From: Clostridia bacterium
Lineage (GTDB): Bacteria; Bacillota; Clostridia; UBA1212; UBA1255
Reading direction: 5' to 3'
DNA length: 64,000 bases
Assembly (NCBI GenBank): GCA_017935905.1
Contig: JAGBGO010000035.1
Coordinates: 36,064-100,063 of the forward strand
Positions 8,836 through 62,013 of this stretch are shown in pieces. The notes beneath the pieces were generated by a model. It did not search any database. It was given only the letters and a program-made list of their open reading frames with translations, and was not told the origin of the DNA. A program made the position numbers and the translations under genes. Within the stretch, counting starts at the first letter, position 1. Each line of letters starts with the position of its first letter.

Positions 8836-8949
8836 TTACGGAAGATTCAAATCATCTTCCCAATCCGTTCCCTGCGTAGATTCTGTAATAATATCCTGTA
8901 CTTGGAACGTAAATACCTCAATTTCTGCTGTTTCAAAAATCTCTTTCAT
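8836..8949 (-). CDS. Candidate 37-aa acidic small protein (MKEIFETAEIEVFTFQVQDIITESTQGTDWEDDLNLP)
   Basis: A strong GGAGGGGG ribosome-binding site lies 7 nt upstream of the ATG, directly after the stop of the giant gene. The ORF lies upstream of the terminator hairpin. Confidence 0.3.
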   Translation of the reverse strand: MKEIFETAEIEVFTFQVQDIITESTQGTDWEDDLNLP

Positions 8950-8964
8950 ATCAGTTCCCCCTCC

Positions 8965-11900: not shown

Positions 11901-12525
11901 CTTGAATTTCACTCAATTTCAATCGGGAAATTAAAGAGGTCGTGTCCTCATAAGAATCAAAAGTGTTATATGTACGCTCGCCAATACCACGAATCATAAC
12001 GTTACCCACTTCATTCTTGGAGAAAGCAAACATAAATCCCTCGGATTTAATTTGAGATTGGATACCATAAATCTTAACAGGATTTCCTTCTCCTCTAAGA
12101 TATACAAGAGAGTTAGCACTACCATCGGTTCTAAGATACCAAGTCATCGCCTTTGTATCGCGTATCGGATCAATGCCGGTAGCACTGGGATCACCAACTA
12201 ATTGTACGAAAGAATAGTCCGTCATATAATTATCGCAGATAATATTGATATAGCCTTGACCATCTTCACCGTTCTCACCAATTAAATCCGTAAGAATCTG
12301 ATCCAGCTGCACATATCCGGAACCACTCTTCATATCCACTTCTACAATATCCGTAACCCAGGTAACGCTGGATTCGCTCAGTACCGATGCACCGGAACCG
12401 GCAGACCACTTAGAAGTAGACGTTGCCTCCGCACCTACACTCATCGGAAGCGTTACTGTAATCATCGAGCATACCATCAAAACCGTCAACAAAACGGAAA
12501 TGCTACTCTTCCACACTCTTTTCAT
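8965..12525 (-). CDS. Large (1186 aa) secreted multidomain protein
   Basis: It has an N-terminal signal peptide (MKRVWKSSISVLLTVLMVCSMITVTLPMSVGA). An internal ~220-aa tandem duplication follows. The C-terminal part has two concanavalin-A-like/LamG-type beta-sandwich segments. There is no LPXTG motif and no SLH domain. Confidence 0.6.
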   Translation of the reverse strand: MKRVWKSSISVLLTVLMVCSMITVTLPMSVGAEATSTSKWSAGSGASVLSESSVTWVTDIVEVDMKSGSGYVQLDQILTDLIGENGEDGQGYINIICDNYMTDYSFVQLVGDPSATGIDPIRDTKAMTWYLRTDGSANSLVYLRGEGNPVKIYGIQSQIKSEGFMFAFSKNEVGNVMIRGIGERTYNTFDSYEDTTSLISRLKLSEIQGAGETSGEDGVYFRLQSFGDATSNLKYTIKVVYPKPKTSTVDERKPSRWTTGGGAEILSESHEAMVYDTVRVNLAAEPGFVQHHVKLTDLIGSDGKDGKGYIHIIPDDPTNDYSFVQLVGDPSTSGTINPSYTNKQAMTWYVRSNENLVYSTISIRDINSHVTYGNYADFAEEGYVFAFSKNETGNVMIRGIGDKTGSAFDSYAETATALTSRQKLSEIQGVGEETGEDGVYFRIQSFGGAARNQTHTIHIVYPDSEDTSIIPETSTGPENLIYKHVFANQANMKNYFAGACAGTFYLDDEGDYVYSVPTTHTDSYTKVALPDGSYTVKMNIKSDGSKYMGVLLGYGSAPNDLKWMNIRFDPNYDAKTVSFYVWEHCGTNVATPTYGTSWYKGDFDADTWHEVVFKVTPTKTMIYFDGYQAPDFTDPKTGGSITTASLGHFPTSGELNYIGFFPSGATQSIKNFGIYEGVDNIVSEKVFEHYDTAKYWFKNVQQLNAHDQTDCYTVDENGDYIMRVPVISNGGSWISGTRTIPFESYKVSVDFSPNRCITTSGVDKVGGAGFLVGEKVSSGYRFHQLRFDFDMAAGTMSFRGHAQGSDPEHTYSSGIAYIDSFVVVKSGLDFSTKQWFNLTAEVTGKSIQVFLDGEQLFVEKIDRLPTAADIAYFGFMAEGGTAGFDVKNFSITEGVEGEIKTAAPELDEAITLHLQADVDVDDAESVQMKFTFKGEVIWVDGVEADGQYTFSLPDILPQDMCENISAELYIDGMRKDKVATYSLQQYCMNMLPSAEDAAADTSGQKQKLRDVLIAMLNYGTESQKYFEGVTDATLFANSQLDAGEKTSVNQAMTNAGSVRSVGTRSDANNYWKSASLALFNTVRLRFKFVTNDASKITIKVGETTYDNFELSTGNIYYWDYDGVYAHQFDTPVVVGLYVDGVLVQEVTYSINSYVNAFVAANDETSKSYALIQAVYDYGCAASAYNP
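11115..12414 (-). repeat. Intragenic tandem duplication (two ~650-bp diverged repeat units) inside the 1186-aa gene
   Basis: Protein residues ~36-255 and ~256-470 are colinear paralogues. Examples are ...GYINIICDNYMTDYSFVQLVGDPS... versus ...GYIHIIPDDPTNDYSFVQLVGDPS..., and ...GVYFRLQSFG... versus ...GVYFRIQSFG... Confidence 0.7.
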
Positions 12526-12655
12526 TTGCTAAACCTCCCTTAACTCTATACACAAACAAAAAGTTAACAATTGGATAATAATCCATTAACTAATTATACG
12601 CTTTGGGAGATTTTTTGTAAAGTGCTTTTTCAGGGCAAATTATGACGTAATTATC

Positions 12656-18103: not shown

Positions 18104-18826
18104 TTATCGCTCCAACATGGTGCGAACCAACTCGTAGGCAAACATCCAATGAAGTTCCTTCGTAGGGTGGTTTACTTCGTTGGACAGCAGTTTGTTGGTG
18201 TTTACACCGCGGCTGCGCATAAGTTCCCACAAAGCGTGACAATCGCAAACGGGAACGTTCATCTCTCCGGCAATTCTCCGGGCACTGTCTAAGAACAAGC
18301 GAAGCAAGCCGTCCCGCTCCCCTTGGCTGACGGTCCGGATCACTTGTTCAATGGTTTCATTGGCATTGTGATAATCCGTATAATCCGAACGGGTGTTGGG
18401 CGTCATAAAGATCACTTCTGCGCCGGTTTCCTGAATGCGGGTAAAAATCTTCTTAAGTGCTGCTTCGTAAGCGGGCAAACGATCTGCACCTTCTGCCGCA
18501 TCATTCAAACCGAAGCATACAACCACCAGGTCAGGCTGATAACTAAGTACGTCCCGTTCCAAACGCTCCAAACCAAGTTCCGCGTTCTGACCGGAAATAC
18601 CGGCATTGATGATGCTCACGGGAACGGCAGGATACAACATACCCAGCAAGGTTTTTACTTTCGTTACGTATCCGTCTTCCGCACGAAACGCTGTCAAAAG
18701 CTGACCCTGCTCTACGTAAATTTCAAAGCAACCTTGCGTAACGCTATCGCCTAAGAAAGCAATCACCGGTTGACGGTTTTCATGCAGGCTGTTTTGCTTT
18801 GCAAGAATCTTATCTATAATTTTCAT
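18104..18826 (-). CDS. SGNH/GDSL-family hydrolase
   Basis: The GDSL block (IAFLGDSVTQG) and the D-x-x-H region near the C-terminus are present. Confidence 0.75.
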   Translation of the reverse strand: MKIIDKILAKQNSLHENRQPVIAFLGDSVTQGCFEIYVEQGQLLTAFRAEDGYVTKVKTLLGMLYPAVPVSIINAGISGQNAELGLERLERDVLSYQPDLVVVCFGLNDAAEGADRLPAYEAALKKIFTRIQETGAEVIFMTPNTRSDYTDYHNANETIEQVIRTVSQGERDGLLRLFLDSARRIAGEMNVPVCDCHALWELMRSRGVNTNKLLSNEVNHPTKELHWMFAYELVRTMLER

Positions 18827-18923
18827 AAAATATCGCTCCTTATTTGCAAAAAGAGCTTCAGAACAGGCTGTTCCGAAGCTCTTCGTTTCATTTCAGTCCA
18901 ACCGAAATCCCTATCAACTGAAA

Positions 18924-20036
18924 TTAGTTAATAATGGTATTCTCAGTTTCCTTGTCGAACACGTGAACTTTGTTGGGGTTGATTGCAAAGCGCATGGTAT
19001 CTCCGGAATACAAGTTAGCGCGAGGCTTAACACGTGCAATGAAGAGAGAGGAACCAAGCATCATGTACAGCAAGGACTCAGCACCCAAAAGCTCTACAAC
19101 GTCAATCTTGGACTCAATCTGAGAATCCGGATACATCTCAAGGTACATAGCCTCGTCGTGTACGTGCTCAGAACGAACACCCATAACAACTTCCTTGCCG
19201 ATGTAACCCAAATCTTCAAGAACTTTACCTTTTGCTTCAGGCAATTTGATGGTCCAACGCTCGATACGAAGCTGAACGGCATCGCCTTCCTTCTCAACGC
19301 GGCAGTTTACAAAGTTCATTTGAGGAGAGCCCATGAAACCTGCAACGAACATGTTTACGGGTTTCTCGTACAAACGTTGCGGGCTGTCTACCTGCTGAAT
19401 GTAACCGTCTTTCATAACCACGATTCTGGAACCCATAGTCATAGCCTCGGTCTGGTCGTGGGTTACGTAAATAACGGTTGTTTGAAGTTTCTGGTGAAGT
19501 TTAATAATCTCTGTACGCATCTGAGCACGGAGCTTTGCGTCCAAGTTAGACAAAGGTTCGTCCATCAAGAATACTTTCGGTTCACGAACGATTGCACGAC
19601 CAAGGGCTACTCTCTGACGCTGACCACCGGACAAAGCCTTAATGGAACGGTCAAGTAAGTGCTCAATTTCCAGAATACGAGCAGCTTCTGCAACTCTCTT
19701 CTTAATCTCACCCTTCGGAGTCTTTCTCAATTTAAGACCGAATGCCATGTTCTCAAACACGGTCATGTGGGGGTACAAAGCGTAGTTCTGGAATACCATG
19801 GCGATATCACGATCCTTGGGAGCGATATCGTTTACCAACTTGCCGTCAATGAGAAGCTCACCGGACGTGATTTCCTCAAGACCTGCAACCATACGAAGCG
19901 TCGTAGACTTTCCGCAACCGGAAGGTCCTACCAATACAACGAACTCCTTATCTTCAATATCCAGATTGAAGTCGTTTACGGCTGTAACGCCGCCGGGGTA
20001 TTTCTTGTAAATGTTCTTCAATTTAACACTTGCCAT
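18924..20036 (-). CDS. Sugar ABC transporter ATP-binding protein (MsmX/MalK/UgpC type)
   Basis: Walker A (GPSGCGKST), the signature LSGGQRQR and Walker B (LMDEPLSNLD) are present. It has the C-terminal TOBE regulatory domain of MalK-type ATPases. There is no adjacent permease, as for the orphan energiser MsmX. Confidence 0.85.
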   Translation of the reverse strand: MASVKLKNIYKKYPGGVTAVNDFNLDIEDKEFVVLVGPSGCGKSTTLRMVAGLEEITSGELLIDGKLVNDIAPKDRDIAMVFQNYALYPHMTVFENMAFGLKLRKTPKGEIKKRVAEAARILEIEHLLDRSIKALSGGQRQRVALGRAIVREPKVFLMDEPLSNLDAKLRAQMRTEIIKLHQKLQTTVIYVTHDQTEAMTMGSRIVVMKDGYIQQVDSPQRLYEKPVNMFVAGFMGSPQMNFVNCRVEKEGDAVQLRIERWTIKLPEAKGKVLEDLGYIGKEVVMGVRSEHVHDEAMYLEMYPDSQIESKIDVVELLGAESLLYMMLGSSLFIARVKPRANLYSGDTMRFAINPNKVHVFDKETENTIIN

Positions 20037-20284
20037 GTTGTATATATACCTCCTGCAATTTAATATGTCTGGGCAGAATTTTTCTCTGCACTTTCACTAT
20101 GGCTACTATGATACCACAAATTTCATCCAAATAAAAGTAAAAAAACAATGACATTCCACCGCCATTTTTTATGCACCTTGCCCAAAACTTCGAAAAATGT
20201 CATAATTTCTCAACAATTCCTGTCCCGATATGTTATATTATAGAAGTGTTTTACGGAAACTACTACAGAAAGGATCGTGTCCTT

Positions 20285-21568
20285 ATGAGCAACACAACGC
20301 TTCCTACGGAAGAACAGAACAAGCAACCTTCGGAGCAGCCGAAGCAAAAGAAGGTAAAGATTAAGAAGTACAAGCTTACCGTGATGGATTACATCACCAT
20401 CGGTTTTACCGCTGTGATCGTATTGATTATGGTATTTATTTTACTTCGTACGATTCGTCCGGATTGGTTCCAATCTTCTAAGCAGAACAACGGGCAACCT
20501 TCTGCTTCCATGAGTGCTACAGAAGAGCCTTCCTCGGATCCCACCCTTTCCGACAATGGAAACACGTACGGAAACTTTTCCAATAGCCCTTGCATCGCCG
20601 AGATCGACGATCGGTTGTATTTCGTTTCCGCCGGAGATGACGCAAAGCCTTATTTGTACGTAAAGGCGGAGGGCGAGACGAGAAAATTGGTACAGGACAA
20701 CGTTTTCTGTCTGAACGTGATTTCCGATCCTTTCACCTATGCAGATGACGCCAAAGCGTACGCATACACCGTGTTCTATTTAGATGCCGACGGCAATATT
20801 TGTTGCGTGACAGACGGTCCGGTTTACAGCGATGCACCCTTTATGGAAAATGTCGTTGAGAAGAGAATCTACAAAGAGGGCGCCTACAAGTCCATTGCGG
20901 TTCGCGGCGAATATTTGTTCTTTATTGACAAGGACGGCCACGTAGGCAAGATGTCTTTAATTGAGGAAGCCTATACGGTACTCAGCAAAGAAAGCTACAA
21001 AGCGTTGTCCGTGTATGGCACCAGCATTTTTGCACAGCACGAAGACGGTACCATTTACTTGCTGTCCACGGTGGCACGCCCCGTAAGTACACCGACACCT
21101 ACGCAAGATCCTTCTGCTTCTCCCGAAGCTACGGCAACTGCAACACCTGCACCTACGGAAACTGCAACGCCGGTTCCCGGTGTGGATGAGTATGAGATTC
21201 AAATTCTGACGGAGAAAGTAACCCACTTCTGTGTAGACGGTTCTTATCTCTACACCGTTTCCGACAGCGGCATCGTTCGTCGCTCCGGCGATGGCACGAT
21301 GAAGGATACGTTAAGCAAGCGGAAAGCTGAATATATTAACGTTCTGGACGGTCAGATTTTTGTGGTTTCTCAAGGAACGCTTTACGTAGGTACGGCAGCA
21401 CAGTACGTTTCCGGCACAGAAGTTGCCATCGGCAGCGTATCCTCTTCGATCGGCATTAGTTTGACAGAGGATGCAGTATACGTATACGCCGGCGGCTTGA
21501 AGGTTTCCACCTACGATAAAGAAACAGATAAGTACAGCGCGCTTACCAAGGTGACTTTGCCGGCGTAA
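20285..21568 (+). CDS. Membrane-anchored protein with a DUF5050-like beta-propeller repeat region
   Basis: An AAAGGAT ribosome-binding site lies 9 nt before the ATG at 20285. It has an N-terminal transmembrane anchor and a Pro/Thr-rich segment. Motifs of the form hYhhxxxdGxhxk recur (RLYFVSAGDD, EYLFFIDKDGHVGKM, GTIYLLS, SYLYTVSDSGIVRR, GQIFVVSQGTLYV). Confidence 0.4.
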   Translation: MSNTTLPTEEQNKQPSEQPKQKKVKIKKYKLTVMDYITIGFTAVIVLIMVFILLRTIRPDWFQSSKQNNGQPSASMSATEEPSSDPTLSDNGNTYGNFSNSPCIAEIDDRLYFVSAGDDAKPYLYVKAEGETRKLVQDNVFCLNVISDPFTYADDAKAYAYTVFYLDADGNICCVTDGPVYSDAPFMENVVEKRIYKEGAYKSIAVRGEYLFFIDKDGHVGKMSLIEEAYTVLSKESYKALSVYGTSIFAQHEDGTIYLLSTVARPVSTPTPTQDPSASPEATATATPAPTETATPVPGVDEYEIQILTEKVTHFCVDGSYLYTVSDSGIVRRSGDGTMKDTLSKRKAEYINVLDGQIFVVSQGTLYVGTAAQYVSGTEVAIGSVSSSIGISLTEDAVYVYAGGLKVSTYDKETDKYSALTKVTLPA

Positions 21569-21592
21569 GCGGAGCGTTTTTCAAAAAAACGA

Positions 21593-21630
21593 ATCCCCGT
21601 GGTTTTTCCGAGGCCACGGGGATTTTTATA
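21593..21630. terminator. Bidirectional rho-independent terminator between convergent genes
   Basis: The hairpin ATCCCCGTGGtttttccgaggCCACGGGGAT is flanked by an A-tract upstream and TTTTTAT downstream. Confidence 0.6.
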
Positions 21631-21681
21631 AAGAGTTACGATATACGGTAAAAAGTTCGCAGGTTTCCAAAATCCATCTTC

Positions 21682-22518
21682 TTATCGAATCAATTCATAT
21701 ACGTCTTTAATGCTGTCAAACACGTAATCCGGCTTTTCGGCTTCCGGCAGCGCCGCAATGTCGTCCAATGTGGCCTCTCCCGACAACACACAAATAGAAT
21801 AAACCCCGGCATTCTTAGCAGACATAATATCCGTATGCAAGCGATCTCCCATCACAGCCACTTCGCTGTGTTTCAGACCCATTTTCTCGATTACCATATC
21901 AATCATACTGGGATTGGGTTTTCCCGCGATGAAAGAAGGCTTGCGCCCGGTGGCGCCTTCGATCATCAGCATAAAGGAACCGGCATCGGGAATCGAGCGT
22001 CCCGCTTTCATAGGACAAACCATATCCGGGTGGGTGGCCCAATAGGTTACGCCGTCTGCTAAATAATCACAGAACACGCAAAGACGGCTATATTCCAATG
22101 TGGTATCAAAACCCAACACAGCAAAATCCGGACGCTTGTCAGGATCTTCCGTATATTCCGTTACAATTTCAAAGCCTGCCTCCCGGAATGCCGTAATCAG
22201 CGCCGGTGTGCCAAGCACCACCAGGCGGGCGCCGGGCTTCACTTTATTCAAATGGAAAATAGTGGCATTCACCGACGTACAGAAATCCTCCTCTGCCGCC
22301 GCAATGCCTAATTTGCCCAACTTCTCCACGTAGGCCTGTGTATTCTTGGAAGAATTATTGGTGATATACACCGCATTTTTACCCTGAACCTTCAAAGTTT
22401 CCAAGAAGTCCAGCGTGCCGTCAAATAACGTGGTATCCAAATAAATGGTACCGTCCATATCCAACAGGAAATATTTTACATTTTTCAGCGGTGCGGGATC
22501 TTTCGTATTTCGTTGCAT
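21682..22518 (-). CDS. HAD-superfamily subfamily IIA hydrolase (NagD/p-nitrophenylphosphatase-like)
   Basis: It has the FLLDMDGTIY motif I, the ...YITNNSSK motif and a C-terminal GD...D motif. Confidence 0.75.
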   Translation of the reverse strand: MQRNTKDPAPLKNVKYFLLDMDGTIYLDTTLFDGTLDFLETLKVQGKNAVYITNNSSKNTQAYVEKLGKLGIAAAEEDFCTSVNATIFHLNKVKPGARLVVLGTPALITAFREAGFEIVTEYTEDPDKRPDFAVLGFDTTLEYSRLCVFCDYLADGVTYWATHPDMVCPMKAGRSIPDAGSFMLMIEGATGRKPSFIAGKPNPSMIDMVIEKMGLKHSEVAVMGDRLHTDIMSAKNAGVYSICVLSGEATLDDIAALPEAEKPDYVFDSIKDVYELIR

Positions 22519-53660: not shown

Positions 53661-53760
53661 CGCAGAAAATCAACGAAAATATACATTTGGAAGTCCAAAT
53701 TGTATACAAATCGCCATTTTACCGTGAAAATATACCGGAATTTATGCAATCGTTAAAGTA
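53643..53760. repeat. Dispersed intergenic repeat, copy B
   Basis: It aligns with 37783-37915 at about 75% identity. Confidence 0.6.
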
Positions 53761-54200
53761 TCCCCCCGGACGTAACAAGGATCGTCACCGCCATAGTACA
53801 CAGACGTACCCCAAATGGGTACAAATTTTACAGAAATTTCCCGCTCCACAATCAAGGTAAAAGAAACCTTTTCACGGAAATCATTCTCAGCGTTATCGTC
53901 CACACCAATTTGCAGCGTATAATAACATTGATTACCAACCTCAATTTTGCAGAAACCGGTAGAGGCGGAACCTTCCACATACGACAAATTAACCGCATAC
54001 TGTCCCGGCGCTAACGTCATCGTGTTGGAAGTATAGAGATCTTCCTCTCCCTGCAAGATCTGAATATCCAAAGTATAGTTGGCAGCAACAATCCGGTTAC
54101 TGCCGGAATCTACACCGGCGGTAAAATACCCAAAGGCTGCAAAACTCATCGATGTGAGCAAAAGCACAATAGATACAAAAGAAAAATATATTTTTCTCAT
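53742..54200 (-). CDS. Small secreted protein (152 aa), last gene of the SipW/TasA-like operon
   Basis: The signal peptide is MRKIYFSFVSIVLLLTSMSFAAFGYFTAG. Its start overlaps the upstream gene in an ATGA arrangement. Confidence 0.45.
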   Translation of the reverse strand: MRKIYFSFVSIVLLLTSMSFAAFGYFTAGVDSGSNRIVAANYTLDIQILQGEEDLYTSNTMTLAPGQYAVNLSYVEGSASTGFCKIEVGNQCYYTLQIGVDDNAENDFREKVSFTLIVEREISVKFVPIWGTSVYYGGDDPCYVRGDTLTIA

Positions 54201-54826
54201 GCGGCACCCCCTTGCTGGGTCGCGCGAACAATCAACCCTAAATCTACTTCCGGCACCACTTCGCCTCGGTAATTCGCTTGGTTATCGACCTCTTCCGGCA
54301 TCCGTACGATAAGCGCCACGTATGCAGTTTCCTCGGCACCCAAAGAAGCCTTCTCCGAAGCATATTGATTTAATTCCATATTGGCATAGGCGCAGGCTCG
54401 CTCTCTTGTTCCCACAAGGGCATCCAGCGCGCCTTCGTCTGTGTCAGTCACCAAACCGAATTTCAAATAGTCCTGCAGGATAAACGGCTCTCCCATCATA
54501 TTCTCTGCCACGGTATATCCCGTCACGTTAACAGCAGTATAAAAATCAAAAGGTACAGTTCCCTTGTTCTCCACTTTCAAATAAACCACTTGCACGTAAC
54601 CGGGCTCATACAAAGCGTTGTCATCAAACACCTTTGTATCTGCCTCAAGCTCTTTATACGACCCATCCGCCTGCCTATAAGACACCTTCAACTCAAAATC
54701 TGCAAAATGGAACACGTTCTGTAATTCCGGCGTAGCATCAGAGAACCATGCAATGGAGGTACCGGCACCCAAAATAATCCATAACAAAATCAAGCCTACA
54801 CTGAGGGTAAAAGCAATTTTCTTCAT
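54197..54826 (-). CDS. TasA/camelysin-like protein with a SipW-cognate class signal peptide
   Basis: MKKIAFTLSVGLILLWIILGAGTSIAWFSDA has a motif matching the SipW-cognate signal (..GT.A.FSD). An AAGGAGGG ribosome-binding site is present, and its start overlaps the previous stop in an ATGA arrangement. Confidence 0.55.
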   Translation of the reverse strand: MKKIAFTLSVGLILLWIILGAGTSIAWFSDATPELQNVFHFADFELKVSYRQADGSYKELEADTKVFDDNALYEPGYVQVVYLKVENKGTVPFDFYTAVNVTGYTVAENMMGEPFILQDYLKFGLVTDTDEGALDALVGTRERACAYANMELNQYASEKASLGAEETAYVALIVRMPEEVDNQANYRGEVVPEVDLGLIVRATQQGGAA

Positions 54827-55467
54827 GCTTTTTCCCTCCTTTTTCGCAAGATAAACAGCAAGATTAACAGGAAACCCGCCCCACCTAAGATCGCAAACCA
54901 CAAAGGCCGATTAAAAGTATCGCCCGTAGGCGGCACCGGGTCGTCATTTTCCACTGGAAACTCCTCTACCTTAAATTCCCAATCCAAATAGCCGGTCTGC
55001 CCGCTATATTCATTGCCAAGGGTCACCGGCACCTCCAAAAGAACTTCCAGATTGACCACGCCGCCGGAATACAAAGTACCCAAGCAAACCCAATCGGAAA
55101 GTTGCGCCGTTTCGGAAGCTGCGCTGTCAAACATATACGCCATGGTATTGTCCGAAGCGGCCCGCACTTTCAGTCCCAACTGAGACAAAAATCCTTCCGA
55201 GCCCGCCTGCGCACCCAAGGCGCGCAGATAGATCTTTACTTTAACCTTCTTAGAGGCTTCATTTCGAACTGTAATGTTTTGTGTCAATGTATCCCCGGGC
55301 ATAACGTCCTTAAATGCAGGAAACAAATCCGTAGGAGACTGACTGCTGCCGGGGGTAAAAATAAATTCACCTGAATCTCCGGCATACGTGACGGAACTCT
55401 CCTTTGCCATAGTCGGCAGGCTGAAACACAGCAGCAATATGAAAATGATACAAAAAATTCTTCTCAT
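54823..55467 (-). CDS. Secreted protein with a C-terminal LPXTG-like sorting signal (VPPTG, hydrophobic segment, RKRREKA)
   Basis: It has a standard signal peptide and a beta-rich domain. The C-terminal tripartite cell-wall sorting signal is VPPTGDTFNRPLWFAILGGAGFLLILLFILRKRREKA. Confidence 0.5.
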   Translation of the reverse strand: MRRIFCIIFILLLCFSLPTMAKESSVTYAGDSGEFIFTPGSSQSPTDLFPAFKDVMPGDTLTQNITVRNEASKKVKVKIYLRALGAQAGSEGFLSQLGLKVRAASDNTMAYMFDSAASETAQLSDWVCLGTLYSGGVVNLEVLLEVPVTLGNEYSGQTGYLDWEFKVEEFPVENDDPVPPTGDTFNRPLWFAILGGAGFLLILLFILRKRREKA

Positions 55468-55479
55468 CTTGCCACCTCC

Positions 55480-56046
55480 TTATTCCATCGGCCAACCGGA
55501 AGCCGTATAGGTCTTTCCGTCCGTAATAGGATTATGCTCACTCTGAACTGCGTGGGCAGAAACCGTCAAGGACAGCGTCTTACCAATGTAACGATTATCC
55601 ACTTTATCCCCTACGATTTCCACATGGGAGAAAACGCAAGGCGTTGTTTCGCCCGGTGTTAAAATGCTTTTATAATAGTACCAGCCTTCATGAAACTCCC
55701 AATGCTCTGCGTCAATATTCAATTTGAAACAATCCTCTGCAGAAAGTTCTTGGGCATTCACGCCGTACACCACTTTGACCCGCAGGTAAAATGGGTGGGT
55801 GCACGTGTTCTCAATAGTCACTTCTTTGCTCACCACGTCGCCGGGAACAATGTACACACCCTCACTGGGAAACGCCGTACCTTGCTCTGTGGTTTCGTGG
55901 ATAATAAATTGGATTTCGCCGGAGGTCACTACGTTCGTAGCCTTTCCCACGGTAGAATAAAATGCAAGTGTGCCTTGTGCAAAGAAGGTCATCAAAATGG
56001 CCACCATTGCAATGGCGACAATTTTCAACTTCATACTTCTCAACAC
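55480..56046 (-). CDS. TasA/camelysin-like protein with a SipW-cognate signal peptide
   Basis: The N-terminus is MKLKIVAIAMVAILMTFFAQGTLAFYS. The protein is 188 aa. Confidence 0.5.
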   Translation of the reverse strand: MLRSMKLKIVAIAMVAILMTFFAQGTLAFYSTVGKATNVVTSGEIQFIIHETTEQGTAFPSEGVYIVPGDVVSKEVTIENTCTHPFYLRVKVVYGVNAQELSAEDCFKLNIDAEHWEFHEGWYYYKSILTPGETTPCVFSHVEIVGDKVDNRYIGKTLSLTVSAHAVQSEHNPITDGKTYTASGWPME

Positions 56047-56231
56047 AAAAACCTCCTTTATAATTTTAGTAGAAAAAGGGCATCAGACGATATTGGGGGA
56101 TGCATATCCAATGCCCTTTCTGCCTAAGAGATAATCCTCGGCAGGCAAAAAGTATAAATCTGAAAGAAGCAGGACTTATACCCTTTGCTTGCCGCCCAAC
56201 GCCTCGCAAGGCGTTGGGACGGGCAAAACAA

Positions 56232-58430
56232 TTATTTTACAGTAGCATTTTGAACATTGGAAGTTACAAGCGTACCAATATTCTCAGCAGTAAGAAGAAC
56301 ACCGTTCAACCGGCAGTTCTCAAAGGTAACCGCCGCACGAGGATCCATTGCAAAGCCTTCGCTGAAATCGCAATCTACAAAGGTTGTGGGCGCATAGGGA
56401 CGGCAGAACGCATAACCTGCACCCTTACCAAAACTACAGCCTGTAAATTCAGCATCGCCAATAGTTGCAGCATAACTGGTCCAACCATTGATAACACAGT
56501 TTGTAGCCGTTAAACCATTACCGGTTCCTTGATCACAACTAATTGTGTAGGTAGGACCATCAATGGTTACATTTTCCAAATAAACTCTGCTACCTGTAGC
56601 GTTGTGATTTACAAACACACCACGGAAACCTTTTGCAATTGTCAGATTTTTTATCGTGCCACCAGTGATATTAATGGCAGAATCCCATGTACTGGTTGCA
56701 CCATTAACAATCAAGACCTTACCATTTCCATCCAAAGTTTCACCATTTTTGATATTGAGACCGGTAGCGCCATATCCATTACTCTCACTGTCAGTGGTTG
56801 TAATATCACAATCGAGGATGATAAGCTGTGCATCTCCTTCCAATGCTTCTCTAAGTGCATCAGCATCTTTTGCATAAGCAATCATCGTCTCAGCACTCTC
56901 TATATCGTAACACTCATACCCGTCATTATCGATGTAAGGCGCTTTGATTGTAGACAACCCAAAATTGGCGACATTATCCCTGACTAATGTGTTGCATTTA
57001 GAAAGCGCATAGAAATTTCTAAGAGCAATTACAGTCATATCTCCAGCAAAGGTATTCAGGAAACTATTTTCCAGAACAGAAATCTTTAATGCATAAGAAC
57101 AAGAAGCATTGTTATGGGGTGTAACGACTACATTACCATTCATAAACGTATTACCAATTACAGAAACGTGACCCTGGGTAGCACCTACATACACAGCAGT
57201 ATTTACAGTTGTATCTGCGGTTCCAAAACTGTTGTTGATAATCTTAAATTCGCCTTTAAGCTGATAACCGGGATAGTACATATAAATATAATATAAGGCA
57301 TCCGTTTCAAAGGTACACCCATCAATAACAGCACCTTTCATACCGCCACTTTTACGATTTCTTTCATAGAAAACAACAGGAATATATTTACTGGAATCTG
57401 CAGGCTTTCCGGTAAAGGTACAATTGATAATTTGCAGATTATCTGCACCGTTTGCGCTGTTCTCGGCACCAGTCACATTGGTGTAAAGATCAAGTGCATT
57501 ATTGACGCCACTTGTTTTAGTCATACCGTACGCCATCTGAGCACCTGCCGCATCAAAGGTAATGCCAATCAACTTGCAATTATTCTTTGCATTGGCATTA
57601 ACATAGTCAACAACAGCAGAATTAGTAACCAGTGTCAAATCGTTTTGAGTCAGTGTAAGTTTGCCATATTGTCCATCAGACAATCCAATTACCATACCTT
57701 CTGTAGCTGTAGCAAGAATATCGTCAATGGTTTCAGGTGTAGCAACTACATCACAAGGCAAAGCATCTGCATCGTAATCATTACCGAAGGCATCATTCTC
57801 ATTGACATATTGAGTAGCTACAAGATTAATTCCTAATCTGATGGTAGGAACAACAGTCCCGGTCTTGTAATTTGCCTCATTACCAACGGTTTCAGGCATA
57901 TAAACTACCATGGAAATATAATCCGTATCATTGGTAGACTCCAGGGTAGAGCCTTTGGAAAATCCTGCCGAAATTACGTTGGCGTCTGTAATAGCAGCTC
58001 GTGCCTCATCCCGACTTGCAAAAGCTGTTTCTGTTTCAACAACACCAAATTGAATATAGTTAGAAAGCTTAAATTTCTCTCCCGAAACATTTGTGCCCAA
58101 TGTTTCAGAAATAACATTAATGCCCAAATGATACTTAAACGCCAGGGTACCAGCGTTTACCACTTTCAGATACACAACTTCTGTATGACCGGGTTCCCAA
58201 AGAGCCTCCGCATCAAATACGTTGGTATTCTCATCCACAAGTTTCCAATCCTTTGCGTCCGTGCTCCAATACAATTCTGCATCCAAATTACCGGACTTAA
58301 TAATATTATTGTTCGATGATACACTGTCTGTAAACCATGCAAAAGTAGTACCAACCAACATAGATACGCACATAACGAGTGCCAATGCACTCATCAATAA
58401 AGCACGTTTTGTGCTTTTTGTTTTTGTCAT
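56232..58430 (-). CDS. Large (732 aa) fusion of an N-terminal TasA/camelysin-like domain with a C-terminal right-handed parallel beta-helix (pectate-lyase-like) region
   Basis: The SipW-cognate signal is ALVMCVSMLVGTTFAWFTDS. A ~220-aa TasA-like domain follows. Then come many beta-helix rungs (..NCTFTG.., ..IINNSFG.., ..VIGNTFMNGN.., ..LENSFLN.., ..TGGTIKNLTI.., ..ATNCVINGW..). An AGGAGG ribosome-binding site is present, and its start overlaps the upstream stop. Confidence 0.55.
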   Translation of the reverse strand: MTKTKSTKRALLMSALALVMCVSMLVGTTFAWFTDSVSSNNNIIKSGNLDAELYWSTDAKDWKLVDENTNVFDAEALWEPGHTEVVYLKVVNAGTLAFKYHLGINVISETLGTNVSGEKFKLSNYIQFGVVETETAFASRDEARAAITDANVISAGFSKGSTLESTNDTDYISMVVYMPETVGNEANYKTGTVVPTIRLGINLVATQYVNENDAFGNDYDADALPCDVVATPETIDDILATATEGMVIGLSDGQYGKLTLTQNDLTLVTNSAVVDYVNANAKNNCKLIGITFDAAGAQMAYGMTKTSGVNNALDLYTNVTGAENSANGADNLQIINCTFTGKPADSSKYIPVVFYERNRKSGGMKGAVIDGCTFETDALYYIYMYYPGYQLKGEFKIINNSFGTADTTVNTAVYVGATQGHVSVIGNTFMNGNVVVTPHNNASCSYALKISVLENSFLNTFAGDMTVIALRNFYALSKCNTLVRDNVANFGLSTIKAPYIDNDGYECYDIESAETMIAYAKDADALREALEGDAQLIILDCDITTTDSESNGYGATGLNIKNGETLDGNGKVLIVNGATSTWDSAINITGGTIKNLTIAKGFRGVFVNHNATGSRVYLENVTIDGPTYTISCDQGTGNGLTATNCVINGWTSYAATIGDAEFTGCSFGKGAGYAFCRPYAPTTFVDCDFSEGFAMDPRAAVTFENCRLNGVLLTAENIGTLVTSNVQNATVK

Positions 58431-58450
58431 TTTATTTTTCCTCCTAATCA

Positions 58451-59137
58451 TTAAGCCTCAATGGCCATTCCAACAGTCGCGAAAGCTTCATACGCATTAT
58501 CGCCAACGTGCTCAGTCTGTACCGCCTGAGCCTTTACGTCAATTGCAAAACTGCCGCTAAACGCAGCCGCTTGTTCTCGCGTTAGGGACTCGGGAACCTT
58601 CACAGCGTTGAAGAGTACCAGATCTTCTTCGCTTTCAAGAATATCCGTATAGTACAGTACGTAGGTAACAGTATCTGTTTCGCCATTGATATCTTTCGAG
58701 ATATGATCCCATTTCGTTTCATCAAAACCAACAAAGACCGTGTTCATATCAATATCCAAGCCAACTGCATTGATCCATGCGGTCGCATCAGAAATCTTCA
58801 CAATCACACGAATGTATTGATCGTAATGACCCGTATTGGTAACGTGTGCAATCTTACTGAGTTCGTCACCGGGAAGAATATTCTCATAAACAAGGGACGC
58901 ATCTGTTCTCTCAACATCCTCGACTTCATTAAAGTCACCGTCGCCGTTAGAATCTTTCTGCTCCCATACATCTACAGAGAAAATCTTATCCGGCGTATTG
59001 TCCTCAGAATCAGCAACGAAGAATTCGTTGTACACGCTGTCCTTGTGTGAGAACCATGCGAGTGATCCCATAGAGAGAATGGCGATTAAGCATACTGCCA
59101 AAGCTGTTACAAAAACCTTTTTCTTATTGAACTTCAT
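58451..59137 (-). CDS. TasA/camelysin (peptidase M73 / CalY)-like protein with a SipW-cognate signal peptide
   Basis: MKFNKKKVFVTALAVCLIAILSMGSLAWFSHK is followed by a TasA-like beta-domain. The protein is 228 aa. Confidence 0.6.
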   Translation of the reverse strand: MKFNKKKVFVTALAVCLIAILSMGSLAWFSHKDSVYNEFFVADSEDNTPDKIFSVDVWEQKDSNGDGDFNEVEDVERTDASLVYENILPGDELSKIAHVTNTGHYDQYIRVIVKISDATAWINAVGLDIDMNTVFVGFDETKWDHISKDINGETDTVTYVLYYTDILESEEDLVLFNAVKVPESLTREQAAAFSGSFAIDVKAQAVQTEHVGDNAYEAFATVGMAIEA

Positions 59138-59193
59138 GTTATTTGCCTCCTTTCAATTCATTTTTCTATAAAACGGTGCATAAATCACCGATT

Positions 59194-59403
59194 TTACCGG
59201 TAAAATGGCAATAAAGATAACCACAATTCCCTTCTTTGCCAAATCCAGTACTGCCGTTCTTCCCCTTCCGTGCGGTCAATTTCCGAATTTACATACTGAA
59301 GCTCCCGGCAAAAATCTCTAATCCAAAGAACAAAGCCAACCAGCAAAAGAAAACCAAAACCGCCGCCAATGATGACTGCCAAAATTGCTACCATTTCATC
59401 CAT
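59194..59403 (-). CDS. Small single-transmembrane protein (69 aa)
   Basis: The sequence MDEMVAILAVIIGGGFGFLLLVGFVLWIR... has a ribosome-binding site 12 nt upstream. Its start overlaps the end of sipW. Confidence 0.3.
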   Translation of the reverse strand: MDEMVAILAVIIGGGFGFLLLVGFVLWIRDFCRELQYVNSEIDRTEGEERQYWIWQRRELWLSLLPFYR

Positions 59404-59935
59404 GCGTAGGCGGTACCTCCTTCTTCCGCTTGGCGATTAAATCCGGCAAGAAAACCACAAGAATCAGCGCCACACCGCCGGCCAGTACAAAATACATACC
59501 CGGTGGATTTTGAATAAACTCTGCCACGTATCCCAAATAGGGAATACTGAATTGAGGTACACCGATTACGTTGTTGTAATGCACCGGGGAAGAATCCACC
59601 GTATTGTTAGCGTCACCTTTGGTGTAGAACACTTGCTTCTCTGTATCGACTTCTACAACCCGATGCGTTGCCACCACTAAATTCTCATTTAAGATAAACG
59701 TAATGGGGTCACCCACTTGAATCGTGCTTTTGTCTTTCACGGTTTTTACGTAGATCAAATCGCCTGCGCTGTACGTAGGCTCCATACTGCCGGAAAGCAC
59801 GTTAAACACCCGGTACCCTAATATTCGGGAACCCATCAAGAACACGGCACATAACACCACCAGCACAACGATTACAGTAGACACACTATTCCAAATGCGC
59901 TTTGCACGCTTCTTCGTTCTCTCATTCATAGTCAT
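59396..59935 (-). CDS. sipW: Signal peptidase I, SipW (archaeal/eukaryal S26B) type
   Basis: It has an N-terminal transmembrane helix, the catalytic Ser block VLSGSMEPTYSAGDLIYV, the His/Asp region GDANN and a C-terminal transmembrane helix. Confidence 0.8.
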   Translation of the reverse strand: MTMNERTKKRAKRIWNSVSTVIVVLVVLCAVFLMGSRILGYRVFNVLSGSMEPTYSAGDLIYVKTVKDKSTIQVGDPITFILNENLVVATHRVVEVDTEKQVFYTKGDANNTVDSSPVHYNNVIGVPQFSIPYLGYVAEFIQNPPGMYFVLAGGVALILVVFLPDLIAKRKKEVPPTHG

Positions 59936-60617
59936 CCGTTCCTTCCCGGATTTCTTTCTCCGCAAGTTGCGCTTTCAAGGCTTCCAACTCTGCCAGCACA
60001 CGGGCACTTTCTTCCCGTTCTTCTGAAAGCTTTTGTCGCTCCGCTTCCATCTCCGCCATTTGCTCCTGTTTATATTTTCGGAACAATTGAATACAACGAA
60101 AGCCCTGATAGAGAATCAGCAACATAAAAGGCACAAAGATACAAAGCATATAGCCTTGGGTGGTTTTCATAAAGTTGAAGAATGTTCCCACATCAGGAAT
60201 GTGACCGGTGTACTTACCCAAAATATAAGGGTACGTAACAATAGTCGCATCATCGGTGTCTGTGGTAGTACCGTATGTAACAAATCCCGGATTCCCTTTG
60301 GCATCCGTGGTTTTGCGCCGAATTTTATGGGTAATGGTTTCTCCGAAACTTTCGCTGTCTTGTGAAATAAACGTAATAATGTCCCCTTCTTTCAGGGTGG
60401 ACGGGCTCACTTCTTTCACAAAAATCAAATCGCCGGCATCAAAATCCGTTTTGCTCATAGAGTCTGTCCGTACTACAAATGCTTTGTATCCAAACAAACT
60501 GCGATCATTTCGGTTGAAAGTGGTTACGGAAATAACGGTAAAAATCATCATACACACCGCAACTGCCACCACAATCCACACCAGTACTTTTCGAACAATC
60601 CCCAATATCTTTTTCAT
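59922..60617 (-). CDS. Second SipW-type signal peptidase I paralogue with a C-terminal coiled-coil extension
   Basis: The sequence is MKKILGIVRKVLVWIVVAVAV...VVRTDSMSKTDFDAGDLIFV...; it has a second transmembrane helix and an acidic coiled-coil tail (EQMAEMEAERQKLSEEREESARVLAELEALKAQLAEKE). Confidence 0.7.
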   Translation of the reverse strand: MKKILGIVRKVLVWIVVAVAVCMMIFTVISVTTFNRNDRSLFGYKAFVVRTDSMSKTDFDAGDLIFVKEVSPSTLKEGDIITFISQDSESFGETITHKIRRKTTDAKGNPGFVTYGTTTDTDDATIVTYPYILGKYTGHIPDVGTFFNFMKTTQGYMLCIFVPFMLLILYQGFRCIQLFRKYKQEQMAEMEAERQKLSEEREESARVLAELEALKAQLAEKEIREGTDDYE

Positions 60618-60630
60618 GCAAAATTCCCCT

Positions 60631-60789
60631 CTATTTATCGTTCTTTTGCGCCAAACTTTCTGATAACTTTTCAAAAAACGCTTCGGTTTCTTCTTTGGAC
60701 GTCTGCTGGTCGCTCTCACAGTTCGGACAAATCATTCGCCCCTCCGGAACCGGGACTCCGCAACAGACACAAATATCTACATCGTTCAT
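60631..60789 (-). CDS. 52-aa Cys4 zinc-ribbon protein, first gene of the operon
   Basis: The sequence is MNDVDICVCCGVPVPEGRMICPNCESDQQTSKEETEAFFEKLSESLAQKNDK. An AGGAAG ribosome-binding site is present. It lies 13 nt upstream of the second sipW start. Confidence 0.45.
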   Translation of the reverse strand: MNDVDICVCCGVPVPEGRMICPNCESDQQTSKEETEAFFEKLSESLAQKNDK

Positions 60790-60817
60790 TTATCCACACC
60801 ACTTCCTTACCTGTTGG

Positions 60818-61091
60818 CACATAATGATTATTATGTTGTATGAGAGGTAACTTGTTTCTGAAGCAATAACGTTTTTATGCGTTCCGACAAAATATAAAGG
60901 TATAGAAAAATAACCTTTCCTTAGAAATTCAAAGGCAAGGTTTCACTCATATTACGTAATTGTTGTATTTTTTGTAAACTAATTATAGAATTAGTTGATT
61001 TCTTCAAAAAGGTATGCTATTATACGGCACACGAATGGCATATTCGTGTGTCTTCGTATGTATATACTTACAACATAATAATCATTATGTG
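60818..61091. promoter_or_regulatory. Putative invertible (phase-variable) promoter segment bracketed by perfect 23-bp inverted repeats
   Basis: The left inverted repeat CACATAATGATTATTATGTTGTA is at 60818-60840. The right copy at 61069-61091 is its exact reverse complement. The 228-bp AT-rich core contains sigma-A-like promoters in both orientations. On the minus strand TTTACA-18-TAATAT lies at 60949-60978. On the plus strand TTGATT-17-TATTAT lies at about 60996-61024. A hairpin is at 61028-61050. The tyrosine recombinase gene abuts the right inverted repeat. Confidence 0.55.
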
Positions 61092-61096
61092 TTCTT

Positions 61097-61918
61097 TTAC
61101 AGCAACAATCTCAAATTTTCCATTCTTTTTTGATGTTCATATCCGGTTGTCATAATATAAATTCTGGTCGTATTGATATTGGAGTGCCCCAGTATATCCG
61201 CAAGCTTTGCAATATCTTTTTCAATACCGTAAAATGTCCGGGCAAATAAGTGCCTTAAATTATGAGGAAAAACTTTCTCCGGAGCTACGCCGGCCTGCTT
61301 ACACAGATGTTTCATTTCTCGCCAAATATTGCTACGGCTGATGGGTTTACCGTTACGGGTGGTAAAAATCATACCGGTCTGAATACCCTGTCTGGCAATA
61401 TATTGCTTCAATTTGTCCCTTAATTCCCGCACAAGAAAGATTTTTCGTATCTTACCCTTGCAGGAAACCATTGCCTCTCCCTTCTTCACTGCTTCTACCG
61501 TGATGGCGGAAAGCTCACTGACGCGAATGCCGGTGGCACAAATGGTTTGCACAATCAGGGATAAGCGCCTGTTCTGCTGTCGTTCCGCCGCGCGAACCAA
61601 TCGGAAATATTCCTCTTTCGTCAGTTCTTTTTGGGCAGGACAATAGGCTTCTTGCTGGATTTTGTACTGTTTCACGCATAAATGATGCCTGCCGGCGAAA
61701 CGCAAATAACTGTTTAGGGATGCAATCATAGAGTTTGCACTGCGTACAGCGTACTGCTCGCCCAAATGTTTTTTGTAGTTAAGAATGTCTTGTTTGACGG
61801 GAACTTTATCCCCCATATATTGCATAAAGTATCGGATGTCTCTTAGATATTTTTCAATCGTTGCAGGACTTTTTTCATCCTCTTGCAAAAATTGTTTAAA
61901 TTGTTCGATCGTTGTCAT
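61097..61918 (-). CDS. Tyrosine site-specific recombinase (XerC/D-integrase family), candidate invertase for the adjacent switch
   Basis: The catalytic signature is R (TGIRVSEL) ... HNLRHLFA ... LGHSNINTTRIY. The protein is about 274 aa. An AAAGGAG ribosome-binding site is present. Confidence 0.8.
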   Translation of the reverse strand: MTTIEQFKQFLQEDEKSPATIEKYLRDIRYFMQYMGDKVPVKQDILNYKKHLGEQYAVRSANSMIASLNSYLRFAGRHHLCVKQYKIQQEAYCPAQKELTKEEYFRLVRAAERQQNRRLSLIVQTICATGIRVSELSAITVEAVKKGEAMVSCKGKIRKIFLVRELRDKLKQYIARQGIQTGMIFTTRNGKPISRSNIWREMKHLCKQAGVAPEKVFPHNLRHLFARTFYGIEKDIAKLADILGHSNINTTRIYIMTTGYEHQKRMENLRLLL

Positions 61919-61984
61919 GCCAATCAACTCCTTTATTAATTGATACTTTTATTATTATAGGTTTGAAAAATAATTTCAATACAA

Positions 61985-62013
61985 TTGACTTATTAGACAA
62001 CTATTGCTATAAT
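61985..62013 (+). promoter_or_regulatory. Sigma-A promoter TTGACT-17-TATAAT for the pgmB-GH65 gene
   Basis: It is a near-consensus promoter about 40 nt upstream of the AAAGGAG ribosome-binding site and ATG at 62055. Confidence 0.6.

Follow-up and report, generated by a model that had tools for sequence, protein, structure and literature searches.

A candidate phase-variable operon for SipW-dependent, TasA/BsaA-type surface fibres in an uncultured Clostridia bacterium

Does a compact run of co-oriented genes in the genome of an uncultured rumen or gut Clostridia bacterium encode a surface fibre of the kind that is assembled from TasA in Bacillus and from BsaA in Clostridium perfringens, and, if so, how might its expression be controlled? 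The genes in question occupy the minus strand between positions 53742 and 60789 of a 64,000-nucleotide (nt) stretch of contig JAGBGO010000035.1, hereafter referred to as the window, and a gene for a tyrosine recombinase lies just beyond them. Our analysis establishes, with a high degree of confidence, that this is a real and well-defined SipW/TasA-type locus. The reading that we favour, to which we assign a probability of roughly 0.6, is that it represents an operon under phase-variable control which encodes a SipW-dependent donor-strand fibre of the TasA/BsaA type, predicted to be tied to the cell wall by way of a sortase substrate.

Organization of the locus and its signal peptidases

Ten translationally coupled genes were assigned to the operon and are given below in the order in which they would be transcribed (lengths in amino acids, aa), together with the variable portion of P6, which is discussed later.

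60631-60789, minus strand: Cys4 zinc-ribbon protein, 52 aa; first gene of the operon, with weak matches to PF13240 and PF18912
59922-60617, minus strand: SipWA, divergent SipW-type signal peptidase with a cytoplasmic coiled-coil tail, 231 aa; matches TIGR02228
59396-59929, minus strand: SipWB, canonical SipW-type signal peptidase, 177 aa; matches TIGR02228 and the SipW model
59194-59403, minus strand: TM69, single-pass membrane protein as judged from its sequence, 69 aa; no family match
58451-59137, minus strand: P5, BsaA/TasA-like candidate subunit, 228 aa; signal SLAWFSH and Asn-Glu-Lys pattern
56232-58430, minus strand: P6, TasA-like N-domain with C-terminal cargo, 732 aa; signal TFAWFTD, matches TIGR04088
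56227-58320, no strand assigned: strain-variable cassette corresponding to the body of P6, delimited by comparison with related locus L030
55480-56046, minus strand: P7, very conserved BsaA-like candidate subunit, 188 aa; matches TIGR04090 and PF12389, candidate fibre shaft
54823-55467, minus strand: P8, beta-sandwich protein with a sorting signal, 214 aa; ordinary Sec signal and VPPTG, candidate fibre base
54197-54826, minus strand: P9, cargo-free paralogue of the P6 N-domain, 209 aa; signal SIAWFSD
53742-54200, minus strand: P10, candidate fifth SipW-type substrate, 152 aa; signal AAFGYFT, no curated family match

The length of P6 is counted from the start in the public gene call, which lies 7 codons downstream of the start of the longer open reading frame (ORF). 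The first-pass annotation of this DNA had placed eleven tightly coupled genes here, and while their co-orientation, coupling and positions were upheld, the count was not. The annotation's own list likewise adds up to ten, and the eleventh gene in this orientation is that of the recombinase at 61097-61918, beyond the coordinates that had been given. Its mention of many ATGA overlaps is likewise accurate in part: of the four overlaps, P8/P9 and P9/P10 are of the 4-nt ATGA type, whereas SipWA/SipWB and SipWB/TM69 overlap by 8 nt. The remaining intergenic gaps measure 13, 56, 20, 185 and 12 nt, that of 185 nt separating P6 from P7, and all ten genes are preceded by a Shine-Dalgarno sequence. An Rfam scan of the locus returned no match. 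The wider window carries ordinary chromosomal genes, including those for a penicillin-binding protein, ABC transporters, an LCP protein and glycoside hydrolases.

A 9-bp GC-rich hairpin, CCCAACGCC-TTGCGA-GGCGTTGGG, which lacks a U-tract, was noted in the P6-P7 gap immediately after the P6 stop codon (56195-56218, minus strand), in a portion that is conserved with L030, and a second small hairpin follows downstream. The first of these could set the balance between cargo and shaft gene expression, either by terminating transcription in part or by affecting RNA stability.

Both SipWA and SipWB exceed the cut-off (51.85 bits) of TIGR02228, the model for archaeal and SipW-type signal peptidase I, with 67.3 and 104.4 bits, respectively, thereby bearing out the proposal of two S26B/SipW-type enzymes. 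On the Bacillus SipW equivalog model they score 80 and 112 bits, below its cut-off of 190, as is expected for members from outside Bacillus. Catalytic motifs were compared with a B. subtilis SipW reference sequence. SipWB carries SGSMEP, THR and GDAN, while SipWA retains the catalytic Ser (in DSMS) and His (in THK) and has GT in place of the GD box in 4/4 orthologues. In all SipWA orthologues the first Gly of SGSMEP is replaced by Asp and a coiled coil of the type AELxALKAQL is conserved; this corresponds to the coiled-coil tail that had been ascribed to one of the two peptidases, which in SipWA comprises approximately 45 aa and is cytoplasmic. Among related loci, here designated by L numbers, L002 possesses a SipWA-type enzyme as its sole peptidase, and L010 a SipWB-type enzyme fused to a coiled coil; the joining of a coiled coil to a canonical peptidase was also seen in L012. 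As each type is the only peptidase of some related locus, SipWA and SipWB are probably both active. A dead paralogue was considered as an explanation for the divergence of SipWA, and is unlikely given that this type is the sole peptidase in L002. All five proteins of the window that have the cognate type of signal are encoded downstream of the peptidases within this operon.

The two smallest proteins were recovered as the first-pass annotation had described them. The 52-aa protein contains a CxxC...CxxC arrangement in keeping with its weak zinc-ribbon matches and is 100% identical in four other assemblies, while L006 has a different small zinc-ribbon gene at the same position. TM69, for which profile searches found no family, occurs only in the species of the window and its close relatives, namely in L009 and L030 (69 aa) and in L027 (62 aa).

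Exported proteins, conserved core and variable cargo

Profile searches place several of the exported proteins near the TasA/BsaA families, although to different degrees. P6 passes TIGR04088, the model for the SipW-cognate signal, with 25.1 bits against a cut-off of 19, and falls just under the cut-off of the camelysin/TasA family PF12389 (21.5 against 22.5 bits), a precomputed match to which is carried by many of its homologues. P7 matches TIGR04090, the BsaA family, at 1.5e-7 (31.4 bits, cut-off 60), and PF12389 with 21.6 bits against 22.5. P5 matches TIGR04090 at 1.3e-4 (21.8 bits, cut-off 60) and reaches 13.6 of the 19 bits required by TIGR04088, while P5 orthologues pass the latter model with 25.6 and 32.2 bits and match BsaA at 1e-5. 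A P9 orthologue scores 16.9 bits on TIGR04088 (cut-off 19), and P7 and P10 do not match this model. The scores under the cut-offs of PF12389 and TIGR04090 identify the exported proteins as distant relatives rather than members of these curated families.

Comparisons within the locus extend these links. P9 and the N-terminus of P6 are paralogues (34% identity, E 1e-34), and wherever a related locus contains P8, an orthologue of P9 (56-80% identity) comes after it. P10, which matched no curated family in profile searches and whose orthologues measure 230-314 aa and end in a Thr/Glu-rich tail, had been regarded as a weaker candidate on account of its AAFGYFT motif; its family aligns with that of the P6 N-domain (P6N) and P9 over the signal and first strand at an hhalign probability of 96.6 and an E value of 5e-10, this alignment spanning 58 columns only and hence supporting the candidate at its N-terminus alone. 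Further hhalign comparisons connect P8 to P7 (E 5.7e-4), P8 to P6N/P9 (E 6.2e-4, 154 columns) and P6N/P9 to P7 (E 9.5e-4), at probabilities of only 22-30%.

Searches of PDB sequences with P5, P7, P9 and a P7 profile returned nothing relevant, and evidence on the fold was therefore drawn from AlphaFold 2 (AF2) models of moderate quality, with a pLDDT (predicted local distance difference test) of 68.8 for P7 and 73.5 for P8. The PDB match of highest probability to the P7 model was the TasA fibre 8aur_A (probability 0.99, template-modelling score 0.42), and TasA and AbpA were among the most probable matches to the P8 model. Residues 20-38 of the P7 model, which form the putative donor strand, are disordered, as has been reported for monomeric BsaA.

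In five of the proteins a SipW-type signal peptide is followed by a strand with a conserved Asn. A scan of the window confined N-termini of the types SLAWFSH, TFAWFTD, TLAFYS and SIAWFSD to this locus, in agreement with the first-pass annotation, which had recognised four SipW-cognate N-termini. That annotation had named an absence of TasA/camelysin or S26B profile matches, or N-termini that prove to be plain Sec signals, as grounds for abandoning its proposal, and the profile searches gave neither outcome. Taken together, all six exported proteins look like members of one TasA/BsaA-like superfamily, on very uneven evidence: as judged by sequence and model comparisons, the link appears firm for P6, good for P5, P7 and P9, confined to the N-terminus for P10, and tentative for P8.

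A pattern of three residues sets P7 and P5 apart from the other exported proteins. In C. perfringens, BsaA assembles by donor-strand exchange, and N35 of the donor strand and K74 of the acceptor are joined by an isopeptide bond that locks the polymer, with E56 acting as catalyst (bioRxiv 10.1101/2024.11.04.621531). In an alignment of P7 with 43 close homologues, N34, E47 and K70 are invariant, and the same Asn-Glu-Lys pattern (..TN.., ..E, PGDxxSK) is common to P7, the P5 family and both TasA-like proteins of L006. A search of 1.84 billion representatives supplied 50 diverse relatives of P7 (28-58% identity), of which 29 have both Glu and Lys, 12 have neither and 9 show a mixed state (p 5e-5 by Fisher's test, which ignores phylogeny); all three residues occur in 28 of the 50. 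The positions in mature P7, approximately 10, 23 and 46, are similar to positions 8, 29 and 47 of BsaA. P6, P9 and P10 keep the donor-strand Asn and do not have the acceptor Lys, the position of which is occupied by Val in P6 and P9 and, as read by eye from the PG motif, by Asn in P10; P8 has an invariant Gln at this position and also lacks the donor-strand Asn.

Two further features of P7 were noted. Cysteines C78 and C102 are invariant within the close clade and are not kept in relatives at 28-58% identity, and could serve as a clade-specific disulfide or in metal binding in this extracellular protein of an anaerobe. In addition, one homologue at 76% identity (P0300) is labelled by NCBI as deriving from a 'Bacteroidaceae bacterium' metagenome-assembled genome (MAG), which is most likely a mis-binned Clostridia contig.

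P7 forms part of a core that is conserved well beyond the species of the window. Its 1,427 homologues, which come from MAGs of Oscillospiraceae, Tyzzerella and other Clostridia, share approximately 75% identity with it, and clustering at 50% leaves 1,729 P7-like representatives. P7, P8 and P9 are adjacent in 6/6 of the P8-bearing locus types inspected (L007/8, L009, L010/11, L030, L031-40 and the window). The P8 family comprises 3,545 members, those listed being approximately 60% identical. P8 is the sole protein of the window with an LPXTG-like sorting signal; its C-terminus reads DDPVPPTGD...LWFAILGGAGFLLILLFIL-RKRREKA, that is, a pentapeptide, a transmembrane segment and a basic tail, and it scores 17.1 bits on TIGR01167 against a cut-off of 15.9. 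In a sample of 49 homologous sequences the signal takes the form DDPxPP(x)TGD, a transmembrane segment and a K/R tail, with PPxTG or xPPTG conserved; in the alignment P180 and T181 do not vary, and >90% of the sequences retain G182 and D183. The VPPTG signal proposed for this protein is thereby substantiated. A class B sortase (TIGR03064 180.7 bits, cut-off 153.75) is encoded beside the related locus L010/L011, and matches the type of PPxTG motif that is recognised, as PPKTG and SPKTG, by SrtB of C. difficile (PMC4155245, PMC5118464).

The slot upstream of P7 is variable. It encodes one to three proteins, which have in common a TFAWFTD signal and a TasA-like N-domain and which differ in their C-terminal domains, reaching up to 2,000 aa. 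In the window this slot is taken by P6, with an N-domain of approximately 215 aa fused to a cargo of approximately 500 aa. Homologues of P6 number >3,441, and the N-domain is found fused to beta-helix, leucine-rich repeat (LRR), pectate-lyase-like or SASA domains; the C-terminal 422 aa of P6 gave no Pfam match, and the cargo is probably a beta-helix. In L030, from a MAG of the same species (GCA_054269015.1) that is 95-97% identical at the nucleotide level on both sides, 4.95 kb (8111-13065) replaces window positions 58320-56227 and encodes two other TFAWFTD proteins of 1051 and 606 aa, the counterparts of which in L009 measure 881 and 625 aa. The breakpoints fall just after the conserved region that codes for the signal peptide and just after the stop codon. 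As the N-domain persists in all cargo proteins, whichever cargo is attached to it, sequence comparison suggests that the TasA-like N-domain is a docking module.

Variation in this slot was also observed in another species, in which the cargo gene specifies 2000, 1885 or 1151 aa. The L002 type of locus comprises the recombinase, the switch described below, a TetR-like gene, SipWA and three cargo proteins, and is without P8 and P9; it is flanked by genes for TnpV, a relaxase, ParB and a serine recombinase (3840-4844, 18623-22208) and may ride on a mobile element.

Recombinase and candidate inverted-repeat switch

The first-pass annotation had further proposed a promoter under the control of a recombinase, a proposal which the perfect 23-nt inverted repeat and the comparative data strongly support. 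The relevant features are as follows.

61097-61918, minus strand: tyrosine recombinase, candidate invertase, 273 aa; PF00589 96.5 bits, PF02899 33.9 bits
61069-61091, no strand assigned: recombinase-proximal repeat arm TACAACATAATAATCATTATGTG, perfect 23-nt complement of 60818-60840
60818-60840, no strand assigned: operon-proximal repeat arm CACATAATGATTATTATGTTGTA, 28 nt upstream of the first start codon
60841-61068, no strand assigned: putative invertible segment of 228 bp, enclosed by both arms and bearing promoter-like sites
60995-61023, plus strand: best promoter-like site, TTGATT-17-TGcTATTAT, facing away from the operon and toward the recombinase
60978..60949, minus strand: alternative promoter-like site facing the operon, TTTACA-18-TAATAT, the -10 of which is by inspection not conserved in L009

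The recombinase is Xer-like according to NCBIfam, with weaker matches to tyrosine-type DNA invertases, and has a promoter-like site of its own at 61979..61951; its stop codon lies 5 nt from the nearer repeat arm. The repeat core occurs twice in the window against 0 expected (100 shuffles). Each arm contains an internal dyad, ACATAAT..ATTATGT, which in L002 has become ACATAAC..GTTATGT by a compensatory change, and which resembles the core site that would be expected for a tyrosine recombinase.

Orthologues of the recombinase (47-72% identity) lie beside the repeat core in 11 other loci (L002, L006, L007, L009, L012, L013, L015, L019, L021, L023 and L025). The core ACATAATGAnTATTATGTTGT was found in L006 (an Acutalibacteraceae MAG), L007/L008 (a Tyzzerella MAG), L009 and seven metagenome contigs, and a variant, ACATAACGAGAGTTATGTG, in L002. 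A scan of JGI/ENA metagenomes with the exact 23-mer gave no matches, while the repeat with one N gave 14 loci, 7 of them with the recombinase. The recombinase/repeat module precedes a SipW/TasA-like operon in seven distinct loci, namely the window, L009, L007, L006, L002, L012 and L019. The segments enclosed in L002, L006, L007 and L009 measure 228-242 bp, and with the exception of the window/L009 pair their interiors are unrelated; conservation of the arms around unrelated interiors indicates selection on the arms and argues against a miniature transposable element.

The module was also encountered in other settings. In L025 (2011-4112) the recombinase and repeat pair stand beside an acetyltransferase-like ORF and a MATE-like transporter gene rather than a SipW/TasA operon, and the switch module is therefore not exclusive to such operons. 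In L012 (95-5639), from a human gut metagenome, the module lies upstream of genes for a LytTR-like regulator, a GGDEF/EAL protein, a SipW with a coiled-coil tail and one TasA-like protein, an arrangement which would tie the DNA-inversion switch to cyclic di-GMP signalling.

The orientation of the promoters, which were called on consensus motifs, differs between loci. Extended -10 promoters face the operon in L006 (46 nt from the operon-side arm) and L002 (36 nt). In L007 the site TTGCAT-17-TGcTAAAGT was read by eye at approximately 46 nt from this arm, while the automated scan gave only a different, weaker site at 92 nt. The sole counterpart of these sites in the window and in L009 points toward the recombinase, with its -10 at 45 nt from the arm and both hexamers at the same position in L009. 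On these motifs the switch of the window would appear, on balance, to be in the OFF orientation, and that the module as a whole is a functional invertible promoter seems to us quite likely. Support from outside the locus is provided by inverton group 139 of the Clostridia, to which this switch may belong and for which flipping supported by sequence reads and a tight link to adjacent tyrosine recombinases have been reported; examples enclose approximately 205 and 228 bp and flip in culture, and one, from Intestinimonas, is biased by attachment to mucin (PMC11892184, Microbiome 2025).

In its present orientation the promoter-like site at 60995-61023 (plus strand) would drive transcription across the 3' end of the recombinase gene in the antisense direction, which might damp recombinase expression in the OFF state. 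In L009 (1118-1960) the recombinase was called as two ORFs (153 and 91 aa) and the switch has the same inferred OFF orientation; the split gene is either a locked-OFF pseudogene or an assembly artefact, and the P5 translation from this contig contains unresolved (X) positions, suggesting ambiguous bases. The G+C content of the window is approximately 0.40-0.41 at 56001-58000 (the P6 cassette) and 60001-62000 (recombinase and switch) as compared to 0.45-0.50 elsewhere, which fits the exchange of both modules.

Proposed fibre model, alternatives and known systems

On the reading that we favour, the recombinase would flip the 228-bp segment, the promoter of which faces the recombinase in this assembly, so that the operon is presumed OFF. 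In the ON state SipWA and/or SipWB would cleave the signal peptides at the membrane, thereby freeing the N-terminal strands for insertion into the next subunit. P7, and possibly P5, would form a shaft locked by Glu-catalysed Asn-Lys isopeptide bonds as in C. perfringens BsaA. The P6-type proteins, P9 and P10 would act as donor-only tips or caps, since they have the donor Asn and not the acceptor Lys, with the P6-type proteins carrying strain-variable cargo. P8 would be an acceptor-only base, which takes the last strand, needs no SipW processing and is joined to peptidoglycan through a class B sortase whose gene lies at another site in the genome, a role equal to that proposed for the LPXTG-bearing BsaB and analogous to that of TapA. 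The predicted rule is thus that subunits with Asn, Glu and Lys build the shaft, those with Asn only form tips, and a protein with neither and with PPxTG serves as base; this division of labour is tentative.

A number of observations weigh against the favoured reading. The fibre, the polymer and the isopeptide bond are all read from sequence. No window protein reaches the curated cut-offs of PF12389 or TIGR04090, and the hhalign probability of P8 against both P7 and P6N/P9 is just 28-30%. The equivalence of N34/E47/K70 in P7 to N35/E56/K74 in BsaA is suggested by similar positions only, and the covariation test for the pattern ignores phylogeny. Neither sortase nor type IV pilus genes were found within the window, and it is the absence of a sortase gene that counts here. 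The zinc-ribbon protein, TM69 and the second peptidase have roles that the fibre model leaves unexplained. With regard to the switch, the ON/OFF call is based on promoter-like motifs, and no flipped copy was found in the assembly of the window and five assemblies of the same species (L001, L026-L029), all 6/6 being in one orientation; the three L002-type assemblies (L002-L004) are similarly in one orientation (3/3). Assemblies report the majority orientation only. The flipped-state junction, in which the recombinase-side flank and arm are followed by the reverse-complemented interior, would read ...ATTATTATGTTGTA/TGAGAGGTAACTTG..., the slash marking the join.

The single orientation in 6/6 assemblies is also what would be expected if the recombinase were an integrase and the repeats marked the ends of a small mobile or miniature element, or of what is left of one, with the operon expressed constitutively or under ordinary regulation. 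The location of L002 among TnpV, relaxase, ParB and serine recombinase genes, and the fact that the recombinase scores best on Xer-type models, agree with such an origin. The repeats are, however, inverted and not direct, and a core conserved across taxa around unrelated interiors of 228-242 bp is the opposite of what a miniature element would present, for which reason a miniature transposable element with an integrase was rejected. Moreover, at an equal distance from an arm, the extended -10 promoters are directed toward the operon in L002, L006 and probably L007 and away from it in the window and in L009, the arm dyad has undergone a compensatory change in L002, and a Clostridia inverton group with adjacent tyrosine recombinases and segments of 205-228 bp is known to flip in culture (PMC11892184). 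We accordingly regard an origin of this kind as improbable.

The exported proteins themselves allow for two other interpretations. They could be secreted or displayed in a SipW-dependent manner without forming a fibre, being released or anchored as monomers or small complexes, for instance as enzymes or adhesins with a TasA-like handle, and P8 could be an independent wall protein. It may be said for this view that BsaB of C. perfringens only dimerises and many members of the TasA family are uncharacterised, that the cargo domains are enzyme- or adhesin-like, and that the curated TasA/BsaA cut-offs are not reached; yet the approximately 75% identity of P7 across families is seldom met in proteins that are secreted and free and agrees with a homopolymer interface, the Asn-Glu-Lys residues co-vary, P7, P8 and P9 lie side by side in each of the six locus types with P8 that were inspected, and a donor-strand-like N-terminus is conserved in five proteins. 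Display without a fibre is in our view unlikely. A somewhat stronger case, albeit still a doubtful one, can be made for a fibre that is a homopolymer of P7, with P5, P6, P9 and P10 as independent matrix or accessory proteins, in the manner of BsaA as opposed to BsaB, or TasA as opposed to TapA. BsaB is not built into BsaA oligomers, and the complete Asn-Glu-Lys pattern is restricted to P5 and P7; against this, every paralogue has kept the SipW-type signal and an Asn-bearing first strand, and the cargo is swapped while the TasA-like N-domain is always retained, which suggests a module for docking.

SipW-dependent TasA/BsaA donor-strand fibres are a known kind of structure, and the principle of the locus has been anticipated. 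The closest counterpart is the C. perfringens bsa operon, sipW-bsaA-bsaB(-bsaC) with an adjacent srtB, which shares with the window a SipW-type peptidase and TasA-like subunits with SipW-type signals, and in which BsaA resembles P7 through the match of the latter to the BsaA family model and an analogous N/E/K pattern. The first-pass annotation had considered sipW-bsaA of C. perfringens to be much simpler, which does not agree with the finding that most strains carry one BsaB homologue with an LPXTG motif and a sortase B gene adjacent to it. Its suggestion of a multi-paralogue, possibly heteropolymeric system is also not new, as operons with several TasA/BsaA paralogues, LPXTG proteins and a sortase were noted in 2024-25, and the multiple paralogues were taken to suggest donor-strand heteropolymers (bioRxiv 10.1101/2024.11.04.621531 in each case). 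Unlike the bsa operon, the window has two peptidases, six TasA-like proteins, a swappable cargo subunit, zinc-ribbon and small membrane-protein genes, and a putative invertible promoter with its recombinase; it has no VWA protein (BsaC), and P7 remains under the BsaA cut-off (31 vs 60 bits).

With the B. subtilis tapA-sipW-tasA and B. cereus sipW-tasA-calY operons the locus shares a dedicated SipW for the processing of fibre subunits. TasA fibres form by donor-strand exchange, and TapA nucleates and anchors them by strand complementation (PMC9674648, PMC10151520). TasA differs in having no isopeptide triad or sortase anchor, a single peptidase, and regulation by SinR/AbrB rather than by DNA inversion, and its sequence similarity to the window proteins amounts to weak profile matches. 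The proposed shaft, variable tip adhesin, wall-anchored base, C-terminal sorting signal and isopeptide bonds are reminiscent of SpaA-type sortase pili, which however employ a pilin-specific sortase and Thr-Lys joints, whereas in the present locus the sorting signal is confined to P8 and the other subunits show TasA-like features and SipW signals, implying donor-strand assembly. In its short inverted repeats, promoter segment of approximately 200-300 bp, tyrosine recombinase and surface-structure genes the switch resembles fimS/FimBE of E. coli and Clostridia inverton group 139/invertase group 35 (PMC11892184), the likeness to group 139 being one of architecture. The papers searched contained no link between this switch family and SipW/TasA operons, and the association of an inverton module with such operons across families, the ultra-conserved P7-P8-P9 core, the strain-variable cargo cassette and the duplicated peptidase also appear to be undescribed in them.

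TasA/BsaA fibres have been studied almost exclusively as biofilm matrix proteins of Bacillus and C. perfringens, while the type of locus described here is represented by thousands of homologue clusters in gut and rumen Clostridia, nearly all named members of which are labelled 'hypothetical'. It is conceivable, though at present speculative, that these loci specify a widespread class of pilus in such bacteria, with an isopeptide-locked P7 shaft, interchangeable enzyme or adhesin tips, a P8 base anchored by sortase B, and control by an inverton; such a pilus would combine principles of TasA fibres, of chaperone-usher-like systems and of sortase pili. If this is true, many uncultured commensal Clostridia would display phase-variable, covalently stabilised and wall-anchored fibres with strain-specific cargo consisting of LRR, pectate-lyase-like, sialate-esterase-like and probably beta-helix domains. 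This would bear on adhesion to plant fibre and mucus, on niche differences at the strain level and on immune or phage evasion, and a Clostridia-specific family of invertons and recombinases would thereby gain a defined surface structure.

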